DNA of 64,000 bases, taken from positions 3,549-67,548 of the forward strand of contig JBDRVV010000009.1 of NCBI GenBank assembly GCA_039802005.1, read 5' to 3'. The notes under the pieces are model-generated. The model did no database searches. It was not told the origin of the DNA and saw only the letters and a program-made list of their open reading frames with translations. The DNA comes from a candidate division WOR-3 bacterium. Its GTDB lineage: Bacteria; Hydrothermota; Tepidihabitantia; SM23-42; JAOAFX01. The position numbers and the translations under genes were made by a program. Below are positions 18,325 through 38,761 of this stretch, one piece after another. Position 1 is the first letter of the stretch. Each line of letters opens with the position of its first letter.

Positions 18325-20931
18325 ATGAAGATATTTATAGATTACCTAAAACAAAAGTTACATTCGGGTTGGGTTATTGCCAACCATATCCTGGTTTCAT
18401 TCCATGTTGCCTTTATCTCTTCTGTTTTGTGCATTCCAAAAGGTTTGCAGGGAAAGGAGGTATTAGGATTTGTCTTTACAAGTGTTGATACAATAATCTC
18501 GGCACTCTTCTGGTTTATAAGTTTCCATACCGGGATCGCTATCCACGAGATGGGGCACTATTTGAGGGCGGTTAAATTAAATGCCCTGAATGAAAATATT
18601 TTGCCGGCAGCCCAAAAAAGATATAAAAGCCCAGGATTAAGTAAACTATTCTGGTATTTAGAAATGTTCATCAAAATACCTTATGGAAAATTCACGGGAG
18701 TAAAGAAAGAAGGATTGACATATTATCCAGAAGCCCCATTCAATCTAAGCGTTGCGGCGGCAGGTCCTGAAATCAGTGGTAATATGGCACTTGTGATGTT
18801 GCCGATTGCAGTAATCCTGCTTGCAATTGGACTCATTGGCGACCATATCATTCTCACCTATATTGGCAGATTGTGCCTTGGTATCGGAACTGTAGGATTA
18901 CTTGATTTTCTACTCGCTGACCCCGGAAAATATCGCGAATTCAAAGAAAGGGAAGCAAGGGCGAAAATGAAGGCTGAAAAGATTGAAATTTCTAAAGAAA
19001 GCTGGCTAAATAAGGTCAAACAGGTAAAAGAAATGATGATGACAAAAAGAATTCAGGAAGTCACACTTCCGGATGGTGAAAAACTCCGTGCGCCCTGGCA
19101 ATATCGGAATTGTGGGATGGGTGGTAGGCATACTGAGAAAGAATATCCCGAGAGTAACATAAGTATGCAGGAGATGATGTTTGTTCCACTTTGTGCCAAA
19201 AATTACGAAGAAGCGCAGATGATTACGGTTGCGCTCCAGACACGATTGAAAGAGATTATTGAGAAGAGCGAAGGTGCACGGGTTATGGGAATCGGTCTGG
19301 AAGGTGGACTCGCACCTTATATAAGTAAGGATCCCAATGACATTGTACCAGAACAACGAATGTGGAGAATGGCGGTTCAGGCAATAAGAGACATTGGTTA
19401 TAAACCGGGTGAAGATATCGCCCTTGCCTTTGACCCCGCGGTAAGTGAATTGAGCAATGCATATCGCGAGGAATTCAATCAGCCGGATGCAGTGGGAATG
19501 TATTATTTCTGGCGTGGAGAAGAGAAAGTCGTTATGTCGCGCGACCAGATTGTTGACTTATACAAGAAGACTGTTCAAGAACTTCCTATTGTTATGTTAG
19601 AGGATGGATTTGCAGAAGATGATTATGAAGGATGGCGTCTTGTGATGAAGGAACTTGGCGATAAAATCTTTATTGTTGGTGATGACATCGTAACCACAAA
19701 AGACTCTACAATTGAAAAATGTGCAGATGACGGATTGATGAATGTTTCTCTCATAAAGGCAAATCAGATCGGAACCCTCTCTGAAACTTTAATCGCAATG
19801 CTTGTTGCGTTAGGCAAAGGGATGGATTTACTTGTATCTCATCGTTCTAAATCACCTAATGATGATATGGAGGCACAGATTGCACTTTCCGCAAATACAA
19901 TGGGATTAAAAGCAGGTGGTGGTGCTAACACCGAGCGCCTCTTCAAATATGGCTCAATTACTAAAATAATGAAAGAACTTCAAAGCGCGCGCGATAAAAA
20001 GTTTGATGAAAAAGAGTATGGTGATGTAAGGAATTTCTTAAACAATCTCGTTATAACAGATATTATTGCCTATGAGGAGCCAACCAATGCAGGTATTCCA
20101 AGTGTTGGTGTTAATATTTATGCCGGTATTCCAGGCAGCGAAGCATACAAAAAGATACTAAAAATGACGGGTTCAACGCCATTAGGTACATCGGCTGGAA
20201 CCGGTGAAGCAATCCATCTTGTTGACAGTACAATTGAACGCTCTTCTCTGACTGATAAATATTCAGATTTATTTACTCCCCAACCTGATAAAACATTTAA
20301 ATTCAAGAAAGGGCTCAAAGAATCTGATATCCTTGCGAAGAATGATTCTGAATTGACAGCGCTCTGGCAGAAAGTGCAACGTTATGAAGGGAAAGGCTGT
20401 CTCAATGCGGTCAATAATATCCTGACAATAATTGCCCCGCACTTTATCGGCAAAAAGGTTTCGGAATTTAAGTCAATATCAATGATTGATAAGATATTGT
20501 TAAACCTTGAAAAAGAGACCGCAATCCTCAGAGGTAAACTCGAAAAGAACGCTTCCCAGGATGAAGTCATTGAAATTATGCAGAGAAAAGGAAATCTCGG
20601 AATGAATGCGATACTCTCAGTTTCACTGGCGATGGGCAGGATGATTGCCCATATTCAAGGAAAAGAACTCTGGCAGTTATTAAGAGAAGAAATGAAGCAG
20701 TTAATGGCAAAAGTAATCGCGGCAAATGGCGGATGGGAAATCATAAAGGATGTAGTTCCCCAAGAAAAAGCATCTGCAATACAATCAGCCAAAGAAAATC
20801 TTGTGTCTGTTTTACAAAAAGAATTAACATTTGAAAACCTTGTAAAATGTCTCCAGAATGTTGAAAAAAGGTTGAAAAAAGAAAACAAAAAACTCTATCA
20901 GGCTTTAAGAGAGCAGGCACAGATTTATTGA
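18325..20931 (+). CDS. M50 (site-2 protease)-like membrane domain fused to a circularly permuted enolase
   Basis: aa ~1-205: TM helices, HEMGH, AAAGP; aa ~250-552: enolase barrel motifs (GGRH, QE, EGG, FDPAVSE, LEDG, VGDD, IKANQIG, SHRS, LKAG, ERLFKY); aa ~576-790: enolase N-domain motifs (GTSAG..EA, RYEGKG..AV.N, LGMNAILSVSLA). Confidence 0.88.
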   Translation: MKIFIDYLKQKLHSGWVIANHILVSFHVAFISSVLCIPKGLQGKEVLGFVFTSVDTIISALFWFISFHTGIAIHEMGHYLRAVKLNALNENILPAAQKRYKSPGLSKLFWYLEMFIKIPYGKFTGVKKEGLTYYPEAPFNLSVAAAGPEISGNMALVMLPIAVILLAIGLIGDHIILTYIGRLCLGIGTVGLLDFLLADPGKYREFKEREARAKMKAEKIEISKESWLNKVKQVKEMMMTKRIQEVTLPDGEKLRAPWQYRNCGMGGRHTEKEYPESNISMQEMMFVPLCAKNYEEAQMITVALQTRLKEIIEKSEGARVMGIGLEGGLAPYISKDPNDIVPEQRMWRMAVQAIRDIGYKPGEDIALAFDPAVSELSNAYREEFNQPDAVGMYYFWRGEEKVVMSRDQIVDLYKKTVQELPIVMLEDGFAEDDYEGWRLVMKELGDKIFIVGDDIVTTKDSTIEKCADDGLMNVSLIKANQIGTLSETLIAMLVALGKGMDLLVSHRSKSPNDDMEAQIALSANTMGLKAGGGANTERLFKYGSITKIMKELQSARDKKFDEKEYGDVRNFLNNLVITDIIAYEEPTNAGIPSVGVNIYAGIPGSEAYKKILKMTGSTPLGTSAGTGEAIHLVDSTIERSSLTDKYSDLFTPQPDKTFKFKKGLKESDILAKNDSELTALWQKVQRYEGKGCLNAVNNILTIIAPHFIGKKVSEFKSISMIDKILLNLEKETAILRGKLEKNASQDEVIEIMQRKGNLGMNAILSVSLAMGRMIAHIQGKELWQLLREEMKQLMAKVIAANGGWEIIKDVVPQEKASAIQSAKENLVSVLQKELTFENLVKCLQNVEKRLKKENKKLYQALREQAQIY

Positions 20932-26255: not shown

Positions 26256-28265
26256 TTACCGGGTCAGGATGAATTTCTGGGTTATTATAGCATTATCTTT
26301 TTCAAGAACCACAAAATAAATACCATCAGAAAGTGCTTCAGCACGTGGATTCCAGTTGAGTATATTATCACCTTTTTTGATTGATATCTTTGCAACAAGC
26401 CTGCCATTAATGTCAAAAACTTTCAAGTAATTAGTCTTCAGATTGGTAGCATTAATTTCAAATGTTACAACATCCTTCACTGGATTAGGTACGACTTTCA
26501 GTAACCGGCTGTAAGCAACATTCTCTTTTTCTGACTCCTCAACTGGAGTTAGCGGTGTATAAAATCCTTTTACCTTAACAACCTGATTGACATAGGTACC
26601 ACTTATTTGAGCGATTGTTACCCAATAATTTCCATCCCTCGGGTCAAATTCAATTCCACGAATGTTCCAACCATAATTGAGAAGGAATTTTTTGCCTGTG
26701 AATATCGGTGGCGGACCTTGAAATTCAACAACACCGACACTATCAAGTGTCTGGCTTGCATTGAACCAGGTTTGAACATTGACGAAAGAATTGCCCAGTG
26801 AATCATACGCAAGGCAACGGGTATTCAAATATCCCTGAATCGGACTGTTATATTGAGTTGCACTACCAAGCGTATCACCGATATAAATCAGTTGTGTTGC
26901 ACCAAGTGCGGTTCTTCTATCTGCGTACCACATTGTATTAGGTGGTTTAAAAGCAAGACCAACAGGATAATCTTGGGCAGGATTACTGAATTGTCTGAGA
27001 ATTGCACCGGTAGATTTGTTAATCTTCCACACCATTTTCTGGGGATAATTGCAGACATATAGTCGGTCATCATATCTGCTATAGGATATATCAACCACAC
27101 TATCTTCAGGACCGGTAATTACGCCCATATATGTAACAAAACTATCCGAAGAATACTGCCTTATCTGATTGGAGTAAAAGTCAAGGACATATATCCTGTC
27201 GCCCAGTCGGTCATAGGCAAGGCCATAAATGAACTGGGTGCTTGGAAAATTGGGAAGATATTTCGGACCCCAGATAATTGTACCCGGTGCCATACCAACA
27301 CTATAGGAAAAAGTCCTTACCCAGGTTGACTCGGCAGAAGTAAGTACAAGCTGGAATTCAGCAATATGACCCGGTGGTGTTGATGCATGAACAGACAAAT
27401 CATAAGGGTCTGAAATATTATTGGCACTGACCCCTGCGTTCATTGTGCCATAGGTGTAGGTGGAATCGGTGATTGTAATATAAGGAGAAGTAGTTCGCAA
27501 TTTCCCCTGAACATTGGTTGCCGCCACAGTTCCCACATTTTTTATGTAGGTAACTATTCCCGCATTCTCTCCTGGGTCAAGTTTGCCATTGCCATTGTTG
27601 TCGTTTACAACCTTGGTGCTATCTAAGGTCAAAAATGGTTTATTGCTTAAATAAATGAGTTGTACATCATCGGCGAAGACCTTCGCCAGTTGTGCAGCCC
27701 CTCAGCAAGTATGGGCGGTAGTATCATAAAATGCTACTTCAATCTTTTGAACATTTGCTGGATTAACACCTGGTAAATTCTGCAGTTCACTTGCCAAACT
27801 GAATGAATGAGTATGCCATAGAGAATCATTGACCATAATCAAATGACAGGTTGGCGTATTCTGCCATGGACAGGGCGCAGTAAACTGACAAATACGCGTC
27901 TCACCTAACAAAACACCACTTGAATTACGATAGCCAATTATCACTGCGGCGGCCGCAAAAGTCAGGGTATCGGCATTATTATCATAAGCATAAATTTTTG
28001 CCTTAACCGAAAAGGTAACATTATTCACCGATGGAATATCAACAATCTGCCTCACCCGGGCATAGCCACTGCCCGTCTGTTTTTCTACACGCAGCTCATA
28101 ATCAGGGTCTGGTTCATAGGTGGTAGCACGGTCGATGTAGATATAATAACCTGAAGTATCCTTAGTCCACCCTACACTTATATCCTGCTCGAAATCTCCA
28201 TTGGTAATGAGATTCTGAGCAGAAACTGCACTAATAAACAACAGGATTGTTATTATTCCTCTCAT
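26256..28265 (-). CDS. Secreted protein (CBM-like domain, Ig-like domain, beta-propeller-like region, C-terminal sorting-type domain); predicted selenoprotein with Sec at TGA 27704-27702
   Basis: ORFs 27702-28280 and 26256-27632 are in the same frame, separated by one TGA: ...HTC*GAAQLAKVFADDVQL...; SECIS-like hairpin follows; signal peptide only on the first part, sorting domain only on the second; RBS before ATG 28265. Confidence 0.75.
27672..27687 (-). promoter_or_regulatory. Candidate bacterial SECIS element
   Basis: GGCGAA-GGUC-UUCGCC hairpin starting 14 nt after the in-frame UGA, loop 20 nt downstream. Confidence 0.65.
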
Positions 28266-28352
28266 TAAACCCCCTTTCAAACTTTAATTATCAGTTTTTA
28301 TGTTTATTTTTGTTATCCATCACCTCCTTTCTATCTATCTAAATCTCTTACC

Positions 28353-29705
28353 CTATTCTATCTTAACTACCTTGTGGGTACCTGCTTCCGGCAATCGAAT
28401 AAAATAGACACCTGAACGCAATTTTGAACAGTCAAAATAGCCGTTATCGGTGTGGGCAATATTCCTGCCACTGGCATCATATAGATATACAGTTTTTCCT
28501 GAAAATTCTGGGAGCACTATGTCTTTTTTGATAATGCTCGGTATCTTTATTTTTGATATCCCTTCTTGTTCTGTTTCTTCAACCCCAACAATTTCAATAT
28601 CAATATTGCCACGGATATCATACTGTGATGAAATATATTCACTCCAGACATTGAGATAACGATTATTGGCACCGGGAACGACATCAGCATAGTATATATT
28701 ATTTGTTGACGGTGAAATCCTAAACGCTGAACCAACCTGAAGACCGCTGGTATTGTATTTGACACCCCAAAGCTGATAGATACCGCCTACCTGGTACGAA
28801 TAGGTAACGAGATAATTTATCCCGTCAAACACAACGCGCGAAGACTTAAAATAATAAACCGGGGAAGCGATTGTAAATGGACTGCCAATAGGGGTACCCG
28901 TATTTGAAACTAACAGACCTTTCAAAGTGTATGGTGAACTCGTTTCATTCCAGATGACCATGAAATTAGCTCCACTGTATGCGACATCTACATTGTAGAT
29001 AGCTGCTGAAGCACTGGCTAATTGCAAGGTATCGCTCGCCATAGATCCATCTGGATTTACAAAACGTCCATAGACATGATAAGGTGCTGGAGTATAAACG
29101 CCCCAAACCACAAAATATCTCGTCCCGCCCCAGGTGACTGAAGGATAATAGTAGTATTGACTTGTGCCTATTGAAATTTGAATTCCTGTTGGGTCAAGAA
29201 CCGAACCACCGGGTGTAACCCGGGCGCCGTATATCTGATAAATATTGTTCCGATAGTCATGCCAGACTACAAAATAATTGCCACCCCCAAAAGTTATTTC
29301 TGGAGCATATTGAGCAGGTATAGGACCGTCATAATATATATAAAATGCTGAACCTAATGGGTCACAAGTCGGAGTGACACGCACTCCGCGGATATCACCA
29401 TAACTTCAACATCCTTCGCGCCAGACCACCAGAAAGTTTGTTCCATCATATGCTACTGCCGGTGTAAAGCAACTATCCTGAAATTGGAACTTTCCGTTTA
29501 AATCTATTACAGTACCGGTTGCCGAAACCCTTGCCCCGTATAAAGCGTACATATAGGAAGAAGAATTACGATAATCAGTCCAGAAGACATAATATTGATT
29601 GTTGGCAAAGGCAACACAGGGATATACCTCAATTGTATTAAGATTGGTTATAGCAAAATCCGCATTAAAGAGACTTAAGGTTAACATACCAATTATGCAA
29701 GCCAT
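28353..29705 (-). CDS. Secreted repeat (beta-propeller-like) protein with C-terminal sorting-type domain; predicted selenoprotein with Sec at TGA 29408-29406
   Basis: ORFs 29406-29705 and 28353-29384 are in frame across one TGA: VVWREGC*SYGDIRGVRV aligns without gaps to the next repeat VVWHDYRNNIYQIYGARV; AAGGAGG RBS. Confidence 0.78.
29370..29388 (-). promoter_or_regulatory. Candidate bacterial SECIS element
   Basis: CGGAGUG-CGUGU-CACUCCG hairpin starting 17 nt after the in-frame UGA. Confidence 0.65.
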
Positions 29706-29764: not shown

Positions 29765-29792
29765 ATTATATTCATAATTTGAGATTTGTCAA
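29765..29792 (-). promoter_or_regulatory. Sigma70-like promoter TTGACA-N16-TATAAT for the predicted selenoprotein operon
   Basis: Perfect hexamers read directly. Confidence 0.75.
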
Positions 29793-37537: not shown

Positions 37538-38761
37538 TTATGCTTTTGGTTCAACAACCCTGCCAATGAAAAGTATATTACCGGTATTTTTTTCTTGTAT
37601 CACAAAAATAAATGGATGATCAGCACGAAACACAGGAATTCTTGGACCCACTGAAGTAATACCAACCACTACACCGGTTGCTGCTGCAGCTTCAGTCCCT
37701 TCTTCGTTGACATCAACATAAGCTTGATGGACAACTGCACGGATATATAAATTTTTTGTGCCATCTATACCGGAAAAGTCGCAGTGAGGGGAAAATGCGT
37801 TGGGCATACCAAGTTGTGATAAGTTGGGTGTAAGGGTATATCTCGTTTTGAAAGTAAACTTGGGCAAATATACTTCAACCCTTGTCTCAGACAAAAGTTT
37901 TTTCCACTCTTCAAATTTTTCTTGAGATAACTCTTTCTCAACTAATTTCAAATCATTCTTGCGCGGCAGTAATATGACCATTGATAAATCATTTCCTTCG
38001 TAAGGTAATTCAAGAATTTGCAGTTCATCTGTCTCAGCATAATTAAATCTGGTCTCCGGGTCTATTCTCTTCATCATCGGTACTTTTATTGTCTTTGACT
38101 CGTTAACCCAGAAGTCTTCTTCGGTTGTTAATGATTTATCAAATTGCTTGAGCCACTGCCCTTTAAAATATATCGCATTGGTAATCACCAATCTTGATTG
38201 TTGGTCAATTGAACCTGGTGGGAAGAGGTCTTTTATTTTTTGATTGGTCTTATCTTCTACCCATTTGTTGATTATCTGGCGCGTTTGTTCGGTTGCTCCT
38301 ATAAAATCCACATTCCGTGCATAACCATCGTAATATTTTTGAATCGTCTTCAAATATTCAGGTAAAAATGGGTAGTCTTTTTGAATCCATAAGGCATTAG
38401 CAATATGTAATCTATATTTTGCATTCTTTTTATTAATTTGTTTATAAAGGGATAGAAAAGTTTCCCGACGATTTTTCTCATCCAGAGGGAATTTAAAGAC
38501 TTCATACATCTCACCTTTAACCCAACCCTTTGCCCCTTCAAAGACCATCGCTATTGCCATTGTAATACTGAATGGTGAATAAAAAATATTCCCGGTTTCA
38601 TTTTCAGTCAAATTCTTATAAAGATTAAAACAGAAACGATTATTACCCTGCACAATTTCATCAAATTTCTGTGGCACTTCAGCCTTACCACCCATAGCGT
38701 ATACAAATGTAAATAGCATTAAACCAATCAGAAAATATTTCATAATATAGCCTCCTTGCAA
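37538..38761 (-). CDS. Secreted serpin (serine protease inhibitor); start may be MKYF at 38743
   Basis: NIFYSPFSI, TNAIYFKGQW, EEGTEAAAAT hinge, FRADHPF. Confidence 0.95.
   Translation of the reverse strand: MQGGYIMKYFLIGLMLFTFVYAMGGKAEVPQKFDEIVQGNNRFCFNLYKNLTENETGNIFYSPFSITMAIAMVFEGAKGWVKGEMYEVFKFPLDEKNRRETFLSLYKQINKKNAKYRLHIANALWIQKDYPFLPEYLKTIQKYYDGYARNVDFIGATEQTRQIINKWVEDKTNQKIKDLFPPGSIDQQSRLVITNAIYFKGQWLKQFDKSLTTEEDFWVNESKTIKVPMMKRIDPETRFNYAETDELQILELPYEGNDLSMVILLPRKNDLKLVEKELSQEKFEEWKKLLSETRVEVYLPKFTFKTRYTLTPNLSQLGMPNAFSPHCDFSGIDGTKNLYIRAVVHQAYVDVNEEGTEAAAATGVVVGITSVGPRIPVFRADHPFIFVIQEKNTGNILFIGRVVEPKA

Follow-up and report, generated by a model that had tools for sequence, protein, structure and literature searches.

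An in-frame UGA codon very probably read as selenocysteine in a secreted, lectin-like protein family of the WOR-3 phylum

Introduction

Does an in-frame TGA in the genome of a candidate division WOR-3 bacterium end a short secreted protein, or does it encode selenocysteine (Sec, U) inside a longer one? The question is raised by a stretch of 64,000 nucleotides (nt), hereafter the window, which corresponds to contig C9:3549-67548 of genome G000 (2.54 Mb, 97.6% complete; GenBank assembly GCA_039802005.1, contig JBDRVV010000009.1). A full read-through frame of 669 codons lies on its minus (-) strand at 26256..28265, and holds a single in-frame TGA at 27702-27704 (codon 188). The analysis described here shows that this locus is one gene, for a 669-residue protein predicted to be secreted, whose UGA 188 is very probably decoded as selenocysteine through the canonical bacterial mechanism that uses a selenocysteine insertion sequence (SECIS). 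An earlier note, made from the letters of the window, had proposed a 669-residue modular protein with a C-U loop on a carbohydrate-binding-like domain, completed by TGA readthrough. The modular protein, the loop and the domain type all stand; the event itself is refined to SECIS-directed selenocysteine insertion, and not leaky readthrough.

The frame starts with the ATG at 28265, and its N-terminus reads MRGIITILLFISAVSA followed by QNLITNGDFE. Judged by inspection of the translation, MRGIITILLFISAVSA and the following Q look like a typical and conserved secretory (Sec-type) signal peptide. The N-terminal part runs up to ...YDTTAHTC, and the context of codon 188 is ...AHTC-U-GAAQLAKVFADD... 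The 23 in-frame codons 3' of the TGA, GAAQLAKVFADDVQLIYLSNKPF, are free of stops and lead into a 458-codon frame with a listed start at TTG 27632. Besides Cys187, the N-terminal domain contains C126 (ICQF), C132 (PCPW) and C140 (TCHL). The earlier note had described the frame cut at HTC, the 23 open codons, the three additional cysteines, a hairpin starting 14 nt after the UGA, and a downstream TTG without ribosome-binding site or signal peptide; each of these descriptions was borne out (coordinates in Table 1).

Conservation of the in-frame TGA

The phylum (WOR-3) is represented by 272 species genomes, and all were searched with a profile spanning the stop. The N-terminal Sec domain was found in 110 of them, with up to nine copies per genome. 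The copy-level TGA counts refer to the 150 family matches listed, of which 148 carry exactly one TGA at the same column, one carries two TGAs and two carry none; none of the 150 contains TAA or TAG. Among these matches, most read-through frames have about 600-780 codons, and the extremes are about 220 (contig fragments) and 1,669. The genomic copies listed continue in frame 3' of the TGA for 300-1,669 codons; stand-alone homologues ending at HTC, which the earlier note had named as the finding that would speak against its proposal, are therefore not what these genomes contain. The column is kept in orthologues of 57-92% identity. It also recurs within the genome, as two paralogues (C22:40753-42708 and C2:13977-15950) have the same N-terminal domain, TGA and hairpin in front of a different C-terminal body.

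Protein databases present the family in another form. Three relatives (L010, L011 and L012), with 65-93% identity to the downstream open reading frame (ORF), are annotated as ORFs of 184-187 and 477 amino acids (aa), and each has an in-frame TGA at the identical column. A search of 1.84 billion protein cluster representatives (50%-identity clusters) returned 178 matches to the domain. About 87 of these, with lengths of 170-210 aa, stop exactly at the TGA column; their final residue is Cys in 59 and Gly in 21. We interpret the database entries of about 187 aa as gene-caller truncations, not as stand-alone proteins.

The distribution of the domain follows that of selenocysteine synthesis. SelA was detected in 128 of the 272 genomes, and the taxonomic families without SelA have no copy of the domain. 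SelA is present in every genome with a strong domain match (107 genomes) except G127, G144, G159 and probably G223. As a separate observation, genome G132 (one contig, 90% complete) has two TGA-containing copies of the family and only a 97-residue SelA fragment was found in it, for which a long-read assembly rich in indels, or a lineage on the way to losing Sec decoding, might be the explanation.

Selenocysteine decoding and the SECIS-type hairpin

The genome that contains the window has the components for Sec decoding. A tRNA-Sec with the anticodon TCA scored 78.3 bits, over the Rfam cut-off; SelA scored 472.9 bits, SelB (TIGR00475) 344.7 bits against a cut-off of 242, and SelD 324.9 bits. 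The SelB gene adjoins the tRNA-Sec and SelA genes, and the gene for SelD itself contains one in-frame TGA.

The hairpin GGCGAA-GGUC-UUCGCC begins 14 nt after the UGA, with a stem of 6-9 bp and a UGA-to-loop spacing of 20 nt. The consensus of the bacterial SECIS (bSECIS) requires a loop of 3-9 nt with G[G/U], a stem of 4-16 bp, a UGA-to-loop distance of 16-37 nt and a minimum free energy (MFE) of -7.5 kcal/mol or lower (PMC13188914). The loop, stem and spacing of the hairpin agree with this consensus, and the MFE limit is passed when flanking bases are included (-8.8 kcal/mol with one flanking base on each side, and -17.8 kcal/mol in a 60-nt context).

The hairpin is also conserved as RNA. At the third-codon positions of 29 distinct loci, conservation was 0.90-1.0 within the hairpin and 0.31-0.59 outside. 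All stem positions (162/162) were paired in 27 distinct hairpin sequences, some of them via G-U pairs. Double compensatory changes were found in three of the six stem pairs, with G-C replaced by A-U at two and A-U by G-C at the third. None of 500 shuffles matched the observed pairing and covariation, and slid registers paired only 18-65% of the positions. Certain compensated changes in the stem alter amino acids (K to R together with F to L), and therefore the RNA itself appears to be under selection. Rfam gave no match in 27400-29600; to our knowledge, Rfam has no general bacterial SECIS model, and this null result carries little weight.

Two HdrA-like genes in the same genome (C44:705-3866 and C44:9614-12013, with FlpD, Fer4 and FAD domains) contain an MDCxxU motif, and in the SECIS hairpins of both the loop is GGUC, 27 nt downstream of the UGA. 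We take HdrA to be an established selenoprotein type, so that both genes are expected to encode selenoproteins and offer an internal control against which the loop motif can be compared. The GGUC loop is common to the family hairpin and these HdrA Sec sites.

Structure of the N-terminal domain

The AlphaFold model of the N-terminal domain, built from a 97-sequence alignment, is an all-β sandwich (predicted local distance difference test, pLDDT, 92.8; predicted template modelling score, pTM, 0.88). In this model, residue 188 lies in the loop 185-191, between the strand 174-184 and the long last strand 192-206. In an alignment with the Sec forms, ten stop-free homologues share the closing segment [AV]xVxAD[DN]xxL, in which Asp199 is invariant. 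Both the alignment and the model support that the segment encoded 3' of the UGA is part of the N-terminal domain, in line with the earlier suggestion that it forms the terminal strand of a jelly-roll.

Foldseek comparison with the PDB gave 83 matches at E<=0.001, led by carbohydrate-binding modules (CBMs) and tailspike modules. The nearest folds are CBM11, 16, 22 and 61 and CenC-like modules from phage tail fibres and tailspikes; F-box sugar-binding domains were matched as well. The CBM-type matches have a probability of 1.0, E values of 1e-6 to 1e-8, template modelling scores of 0.4-0.7 and a sequence identity of 10-18%. Among viral structures, 148 matches were found at E<=0.001. At the sequence level, the profile search of the PDB returned only a weak match to the C-terminal region of the GH31 enzyme 5x7o (E 8e-5), and no CBM family of Pfam, including CBM_4_9 (PF02018), matched the merged protein at E<=1. 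With NCBIfam release 20.0, the sorting domain was the sole match and the N-terminal domain was unmatched. The earlier note had pointed to CBM_4_9; on the model, the domain is CBM-like at the fold level only, and membership in CBM_4_9 or another sequence family is not supported.

Several residues might cooperate with the C-U pair. His141 and Gln73 are nearly invariant, and Cys132 (CPW) is common in the family; these three are candidate partners of the Cys187-Sec188 pair. A disulfide-type partnership between Sec188 and Cys132 was also considered: the C-U and Cys132 often co-occur, and some members have the C-U without Cys132.

Alternative explanations

Some points weigh against decoding of UGA 188 as selenocysteine. 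At the Sec column, the stop-free homologues show one of Pro, Ala, Asp and Ile or have a longer loop, and none has Cys there; the pairing of Sec forms with Cys homologues, a classical criterion for selenoprotein families that is customary and not obligatory, was thus not found here. The isolated 16-nt hairpin folds with -7.3 kcal/mol, slightly short of the -7.5 limit. The four domain-positive genomes without a SelA match are draft or incomplete assemblies. Cys was modelled in place of Sec in the AlphaFold domain. That selenium is really inserted at codon 188 is what we infer from sequence only, and the favoured role of Cys187-Sec188, as a redox-active selenenylsulfide or a soft-metal/chalcogen site on a lectin-like module, is suggested only by analogy with other CU selenoproteins.

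The stop-free forms themselves are informative. P0036 has GC-A-EGHC in the place of the GC-U-QGHC of L041, a close Sec form, and L035 has SC-P-PP there. It seems that the site either keeps Sec or disappears. The database protein P0159 (...YHC-W-GAQEKAKVFAD) shows a Trp at the Sec column, which is probably due to a gene call under a TGA=Trp translation table rather than to a true TGG.

The UGA could also be crossed without selenocysteine, if the hairpin stimulated near-cognate decoding (as Trp, Cys or Arg) or if the release factor failed. The open frame across the TGA, the lack of Cys at the column in stop-free homologues and the W of P0159 (though perhaps a table-4 gene call) would all suit such a readthrough. 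It would leave unexplained, however, why the stop at the column is always TGA, why the family tracks SelA across the 272 genomes, and why a SelB-type GGUC loop stands at the canonical spacing, as in the HdrA Sec sites of the genome; moreover, leaky readthrough needs no covarying hairpin that is long kept at a fixed distance. We regard it as improbable. The division into two genes, one for a secreted domain of 187 aa that stands alone and ends at HTC and one for a protein started from an internal TTG or GTG, is still less probable, although gene callers and the NCBI annotation present it in this way and the 87 or so cluster representatives end at the TGA column. Neither the last β-strand nor the invariant Asp, both retained by the stop-free homologues, would be present in the 187-aa part, and the downstream piece has a T9SS (type IX secretion system) sorting domain but no signal peptide of its own. 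No Shine-Dalgarno sequence was seen by inspection before the internal TTG, and genuine gene ends would be expected to use all three stops, whereas nearly all copies listed use the in-frame TGA.

The least credible explanation is that the gene is a pseudogene, that the TGA is a sequencing error or that TGA is reassigned throughout the genome. A single in-frame stop does resemble a nonsense mutation when one genome is viewed, but in 110 genomes and in several paralogues the stop recurs at this very column, and the protein is conserved on both sides of it. Genome-wide reassignment was rejected as a candidate. TGA terminates 356 of the 1,147 (31%) stop-to-stop frames of at least 300 codons in the genome, as an ordinary stop, and it is the genuine terminator of the orthologue in L010; therefore the genetic code is not reassigned.

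In the favoured SECIS-directed mechanism, SelB-GTP carrying Sec-tRNA(UCA) would bind the GGUC hairpin 14 nt downstream and deliver Sec at codon 188. Only the Sec-inserted product would be able to fold, because the last strand with Asp199 is encoded 3' of the UGA. Termination at the UGA would leave an incomplete and probably unstable fragment without this strand, and the selenium supply would thus limit the amount of the 669-residue protein.

Features of the locus and predicted export

The features of the gene and its surroundings are collected in Table 1. The full-length AlphaFold model, built from only 9 sequences, was of low quality (pLDDT 53) and was used for rough domain borders only; it hints at an immunoglobulin (Ig)-like domain at about 212-323 and at the sorting domain at about 589-667. 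In the same genome, a 256-aa ORF at C1:132753-133523 (+) is paralogous to the central repeat region (shared IYV.D...IY.YSSDSFVT and RCL.YD), which makes this region a reusable module.

Table 1. Features of the candidate selenoprotein gene and its neighbourhood (window coordinates)
Feature	Position	Strand	Basis or remark
Selenoprotein gene (predicted), complete, 669 codons + TAA (26256-26258)	26256..28265	-	Annotators give ~187-aa ORF + 458/477-aa ORF
Shine-Dalgarno-like AAAGGGGG, 4 nt 5' of ATG 28265	28270..28277	-	Direct sequence reading
Putative signal peptide MRGIITILLFISAVSA, predicted cleavage after VSA	28218..28265	-	Translation reading; N-terminal hydrophobic stretch kept in orthologues
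N-terminal CBM-like / galactose-binding-like β-sandwich carrying the putative Sec, residues ~17-208	27642..28217	-	AlphaFold, Foldseek
Cys187 codon TGC, C of the C-U pair, adjoins the Sec codon on the 5' side	27705..27707	-	Sequence
UGA codon 188, putatively read as selenocysteine	27702..27704	-	Conserved column + Sec machinery
Candidate SECIS core hairpin GGCGAA-GGUC-UUCGCC	27672..27687	-	Stem 6-9 bp, GGUC loop, loop 20 nt after UGA
Last β-strand of N-terminal domain (model), residues 192-206, LAKVFADDVQLIYLS, invariant Asp199, coded 3' of UGA	27648..27692	-	AlphaFold strand; stop-free homologues
Ig-like β-sandwich (predicted), residues ~212-323, starts VVNDNNGNGKLDPGE	27297..27632	-	Full-length model (pLDDT 65-84, for this stretch only); no Pfam match
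Central region, residues ~324-587, probably β-propeller-like repeat domain	26505..27296	-	Weak NHL-repeat hint, E 0.11; pLDDT <50
T9SS type A C-terminal sorting domain (Por_Secre_tail)	26268..26489	-	PF18962, TIGR04183 matches
Intrinsic terminator-like hairpin, 11 pairs (8 G-C) + T-run, 16 nt after stop codon	26214..26240	-	
Upstream neighbour, second T9SS-tailed candidate selenoprotein, ...VVWREGC-U-SYGD, TGA 29406-29408	28353..29705	-	
Perfect (12/12) sigma-70 consensus promoter-like site TTGACA-16-TATAAT ahead of neighbour	29765..29792	-	Consensus match only

The C-terminal sorting domain scored 42.2 bits with Por_Secre_tail PF18962 (cut-off 27) and 40.7 bits with TIGR04183 (cut-off 23). 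The genome also has PorU (478 bits, cut-off 420) and SprA (313.8 bits summed, cut-off 200), a PorV-like match of 97 bits (below the cut-off of 250) and dozens of further sorting-domain matches. Export is predicted because the protein combines a putative signal peptide with a T9SS sorting domain in a genome that contains T9SS genes. The protein would cross the inner membrane through the Sec pathway (translocon), fold, and then leave by the T9SS, so that the selenocysteine would be exposed on the cell surface or lie outside it.

Related and neighbouring candidate selenoprotein genes

The upstream neighbour has a hairpin of its own, CGGAGUG-CGUGU-CACUCCG (z = -4.5). Its family occurs in 170 of the 272 phylum genomes, where most matches listed have exactly one TGA, and a paralogue in the same genome (C42:2413-3771) shows compensated stem changes (GGGGUG/CACCUC). 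The two adjacent selenoprotein genes probably form one bicistronic transcript, as read from the sequence, since a promoter-like site lies 5' and a terminator-like hairpin 3' of the pair, and no terminator-like site was found between the two genes on the (-) strand. The pairing is not conserved in orthologues that are more distant. We also considered a conserved functional operon and rejected it: the neighbours of the orthologues are unrelated, and the flanking genes in the window are housekeeping genes.

A separate set of four paralogues in the same genome (C22:39660-40742, C13:44085-45176, C4:21089-22165 and C43:5175-5900) shows the motif U-G/A-x-C close to the N-terminus, and a T9SS tail is present in three of the four. 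The set gives weak matches to NF045500 (Omp28-related, GOS_C family) and to Pfam Omp28. The gene at C22:39660-40742 lies directly upstream of the Sec-domain paralogue C22:40753-42708.

Elsewhere in the window, an 868-aa ORF at 18325-20931 (+) has Enolase_C (residues 266-555) before Enolase_N (residues 682-786); both this domain order and the length are unusual in an enolase. At 37538-38761 (-), this bacterial genome encodes a full-length serpin (PF00079, 421.7 bits).

Novelty and possible function

The recoding mechanism is canonical, and the protein family is large and uncatalogued. None of the 119 selenoprotein families and subfamilies in Table 1 of the May 2026 review (PMC13188914) fits this family, the NCBIfam selenoprotein models gave no match to it, and a literature search found no paper linking selenoproteins with T9SS or with WOR-3. 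Extracytoplasmic Sec is already known from SaoB, SaoC, the TonB-dependent receptor type and the Omp28-related proteins; a Sec lectin-like module on T9SS cargo is new. The known bacterial selenoproteins are mostly thiol-oxidoreductase-like enzymes (PMC13188914). The present family would be an unusual selenoprotein, in which Sec, usually beside Cys, sits in a lectin-like β-sandwich at the head of proteins with a T9SS signal, and would thus be placed outside the cell of an anaerobe. We infer that the Cys-Sec module is a common N-terminal 'head' on surface proteins with varied C-terminal parts. The family is systematically mis-annotated, with a short hypothetical protein and a 'T9SS sorting domain protein' in place of one gene; its recognition would correct hundreds of gene models and add to the selenoproteome of this uncultured phylum. 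The family also raises the question of what role extracellular selenocysteine chemistry plays in these bacteria, and of whether their surface proteins are controlled by the availability of selenium.

As a speculation that we hold to be rather doubtful, the WOR-3 bacteria might display a selenium-based surface proteome through the T9SS. The Cys-Sec 'head', in two to nine copies per genome and on different bodies, would act on a substrate outside the cell, a chalcogen, a metal or one linked to a glycan, by capture or reduction; polysulfide, elemental sulfur, selenium and thiophilic metals are examples. Its partners in this role would be the C-U family of the neighbouring repeat protein and the Omp28-like UxxC family. 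If Sec insertion completes each fold, the selenium supply would gate this whole set of surface proteins.

Comparison with known systems

The decoding of fdhF in E. coli uses a UGA, an intragenic bSECIS and SelA/SelB/SelC/SelD, with the apical loop GGUC about 20 nt downstream. The present gene is similar in its in-frame UGA, the GGUC hairpin in the coding region about 20 nt downstream, and the full set of sel genes. The proteins are unrelated: formate dehydrogenase is a cytoplasmic molybdoenzyme, whereas the protein described here is predicted to be a secreted β-sandwich that is not enzyme-like.

The N-terminal domain resembles the CBM β-sandwiches (CBM11, CBM16, CBM22, CBM61, CenC-like CBM4_9 and tailspike modules) in the fold, the NGDFE opening and the acidic last strand. 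The identity is only 10-18%, there is no match to a Pfam CBM, and carbohydrate binding by the modelled domain is putative. We know of no CBM that carries selenocysteine. The Omp28-related selenoprotein (NF045500, 'hypothetical protein GOS_C') is found in the same genome, where both types are T9SS-tailed and predicted to be extracytoplasmic, and it adjoins a family paralogue at C22:39660-42708. However, it has UxxC near the N-terminus of an Omp28-like fold, whereas the present family has C-U or G-U in a CBM-like sandwich.

Selenoproteins with a CU dipeptide include SaoB, SaoC, SaoL and HgcA (Haft & Gwadz, bioRxiv 10.1101/2022.07.06.499078), and MbdU and KCU-star are further CU types (PMC13188914). 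SaoB and SaoC carry signal peptides, and metal or organometallic binding by clustered Cys/Sec was proposed for them (bioRxiv 10.1101/2022.07.06.499078). These proteins share with the present family the Cys-Sec dipeptide and database entries that are typically truncated at the CU; whereas they show no relation to it in sequence or fold, and the present family has no conserved gene neighbourhood. Their export uses lipoprotein or substrate-binding-protein routes, whereas the T9SS sorting domain would direct the export here. The 2026 catalogue also lists outer-membrane selenoproteins, namely the TonB-dependent receptor of the FCYXU type and the MtrB/PioB-like GSU2204 family (PMC13188914). Although these are membrane β-barrels with other motifs and are not T9SS cargo, they are similar to the family described here in having a selenocysteine, putative in our case, in the cell envelope.

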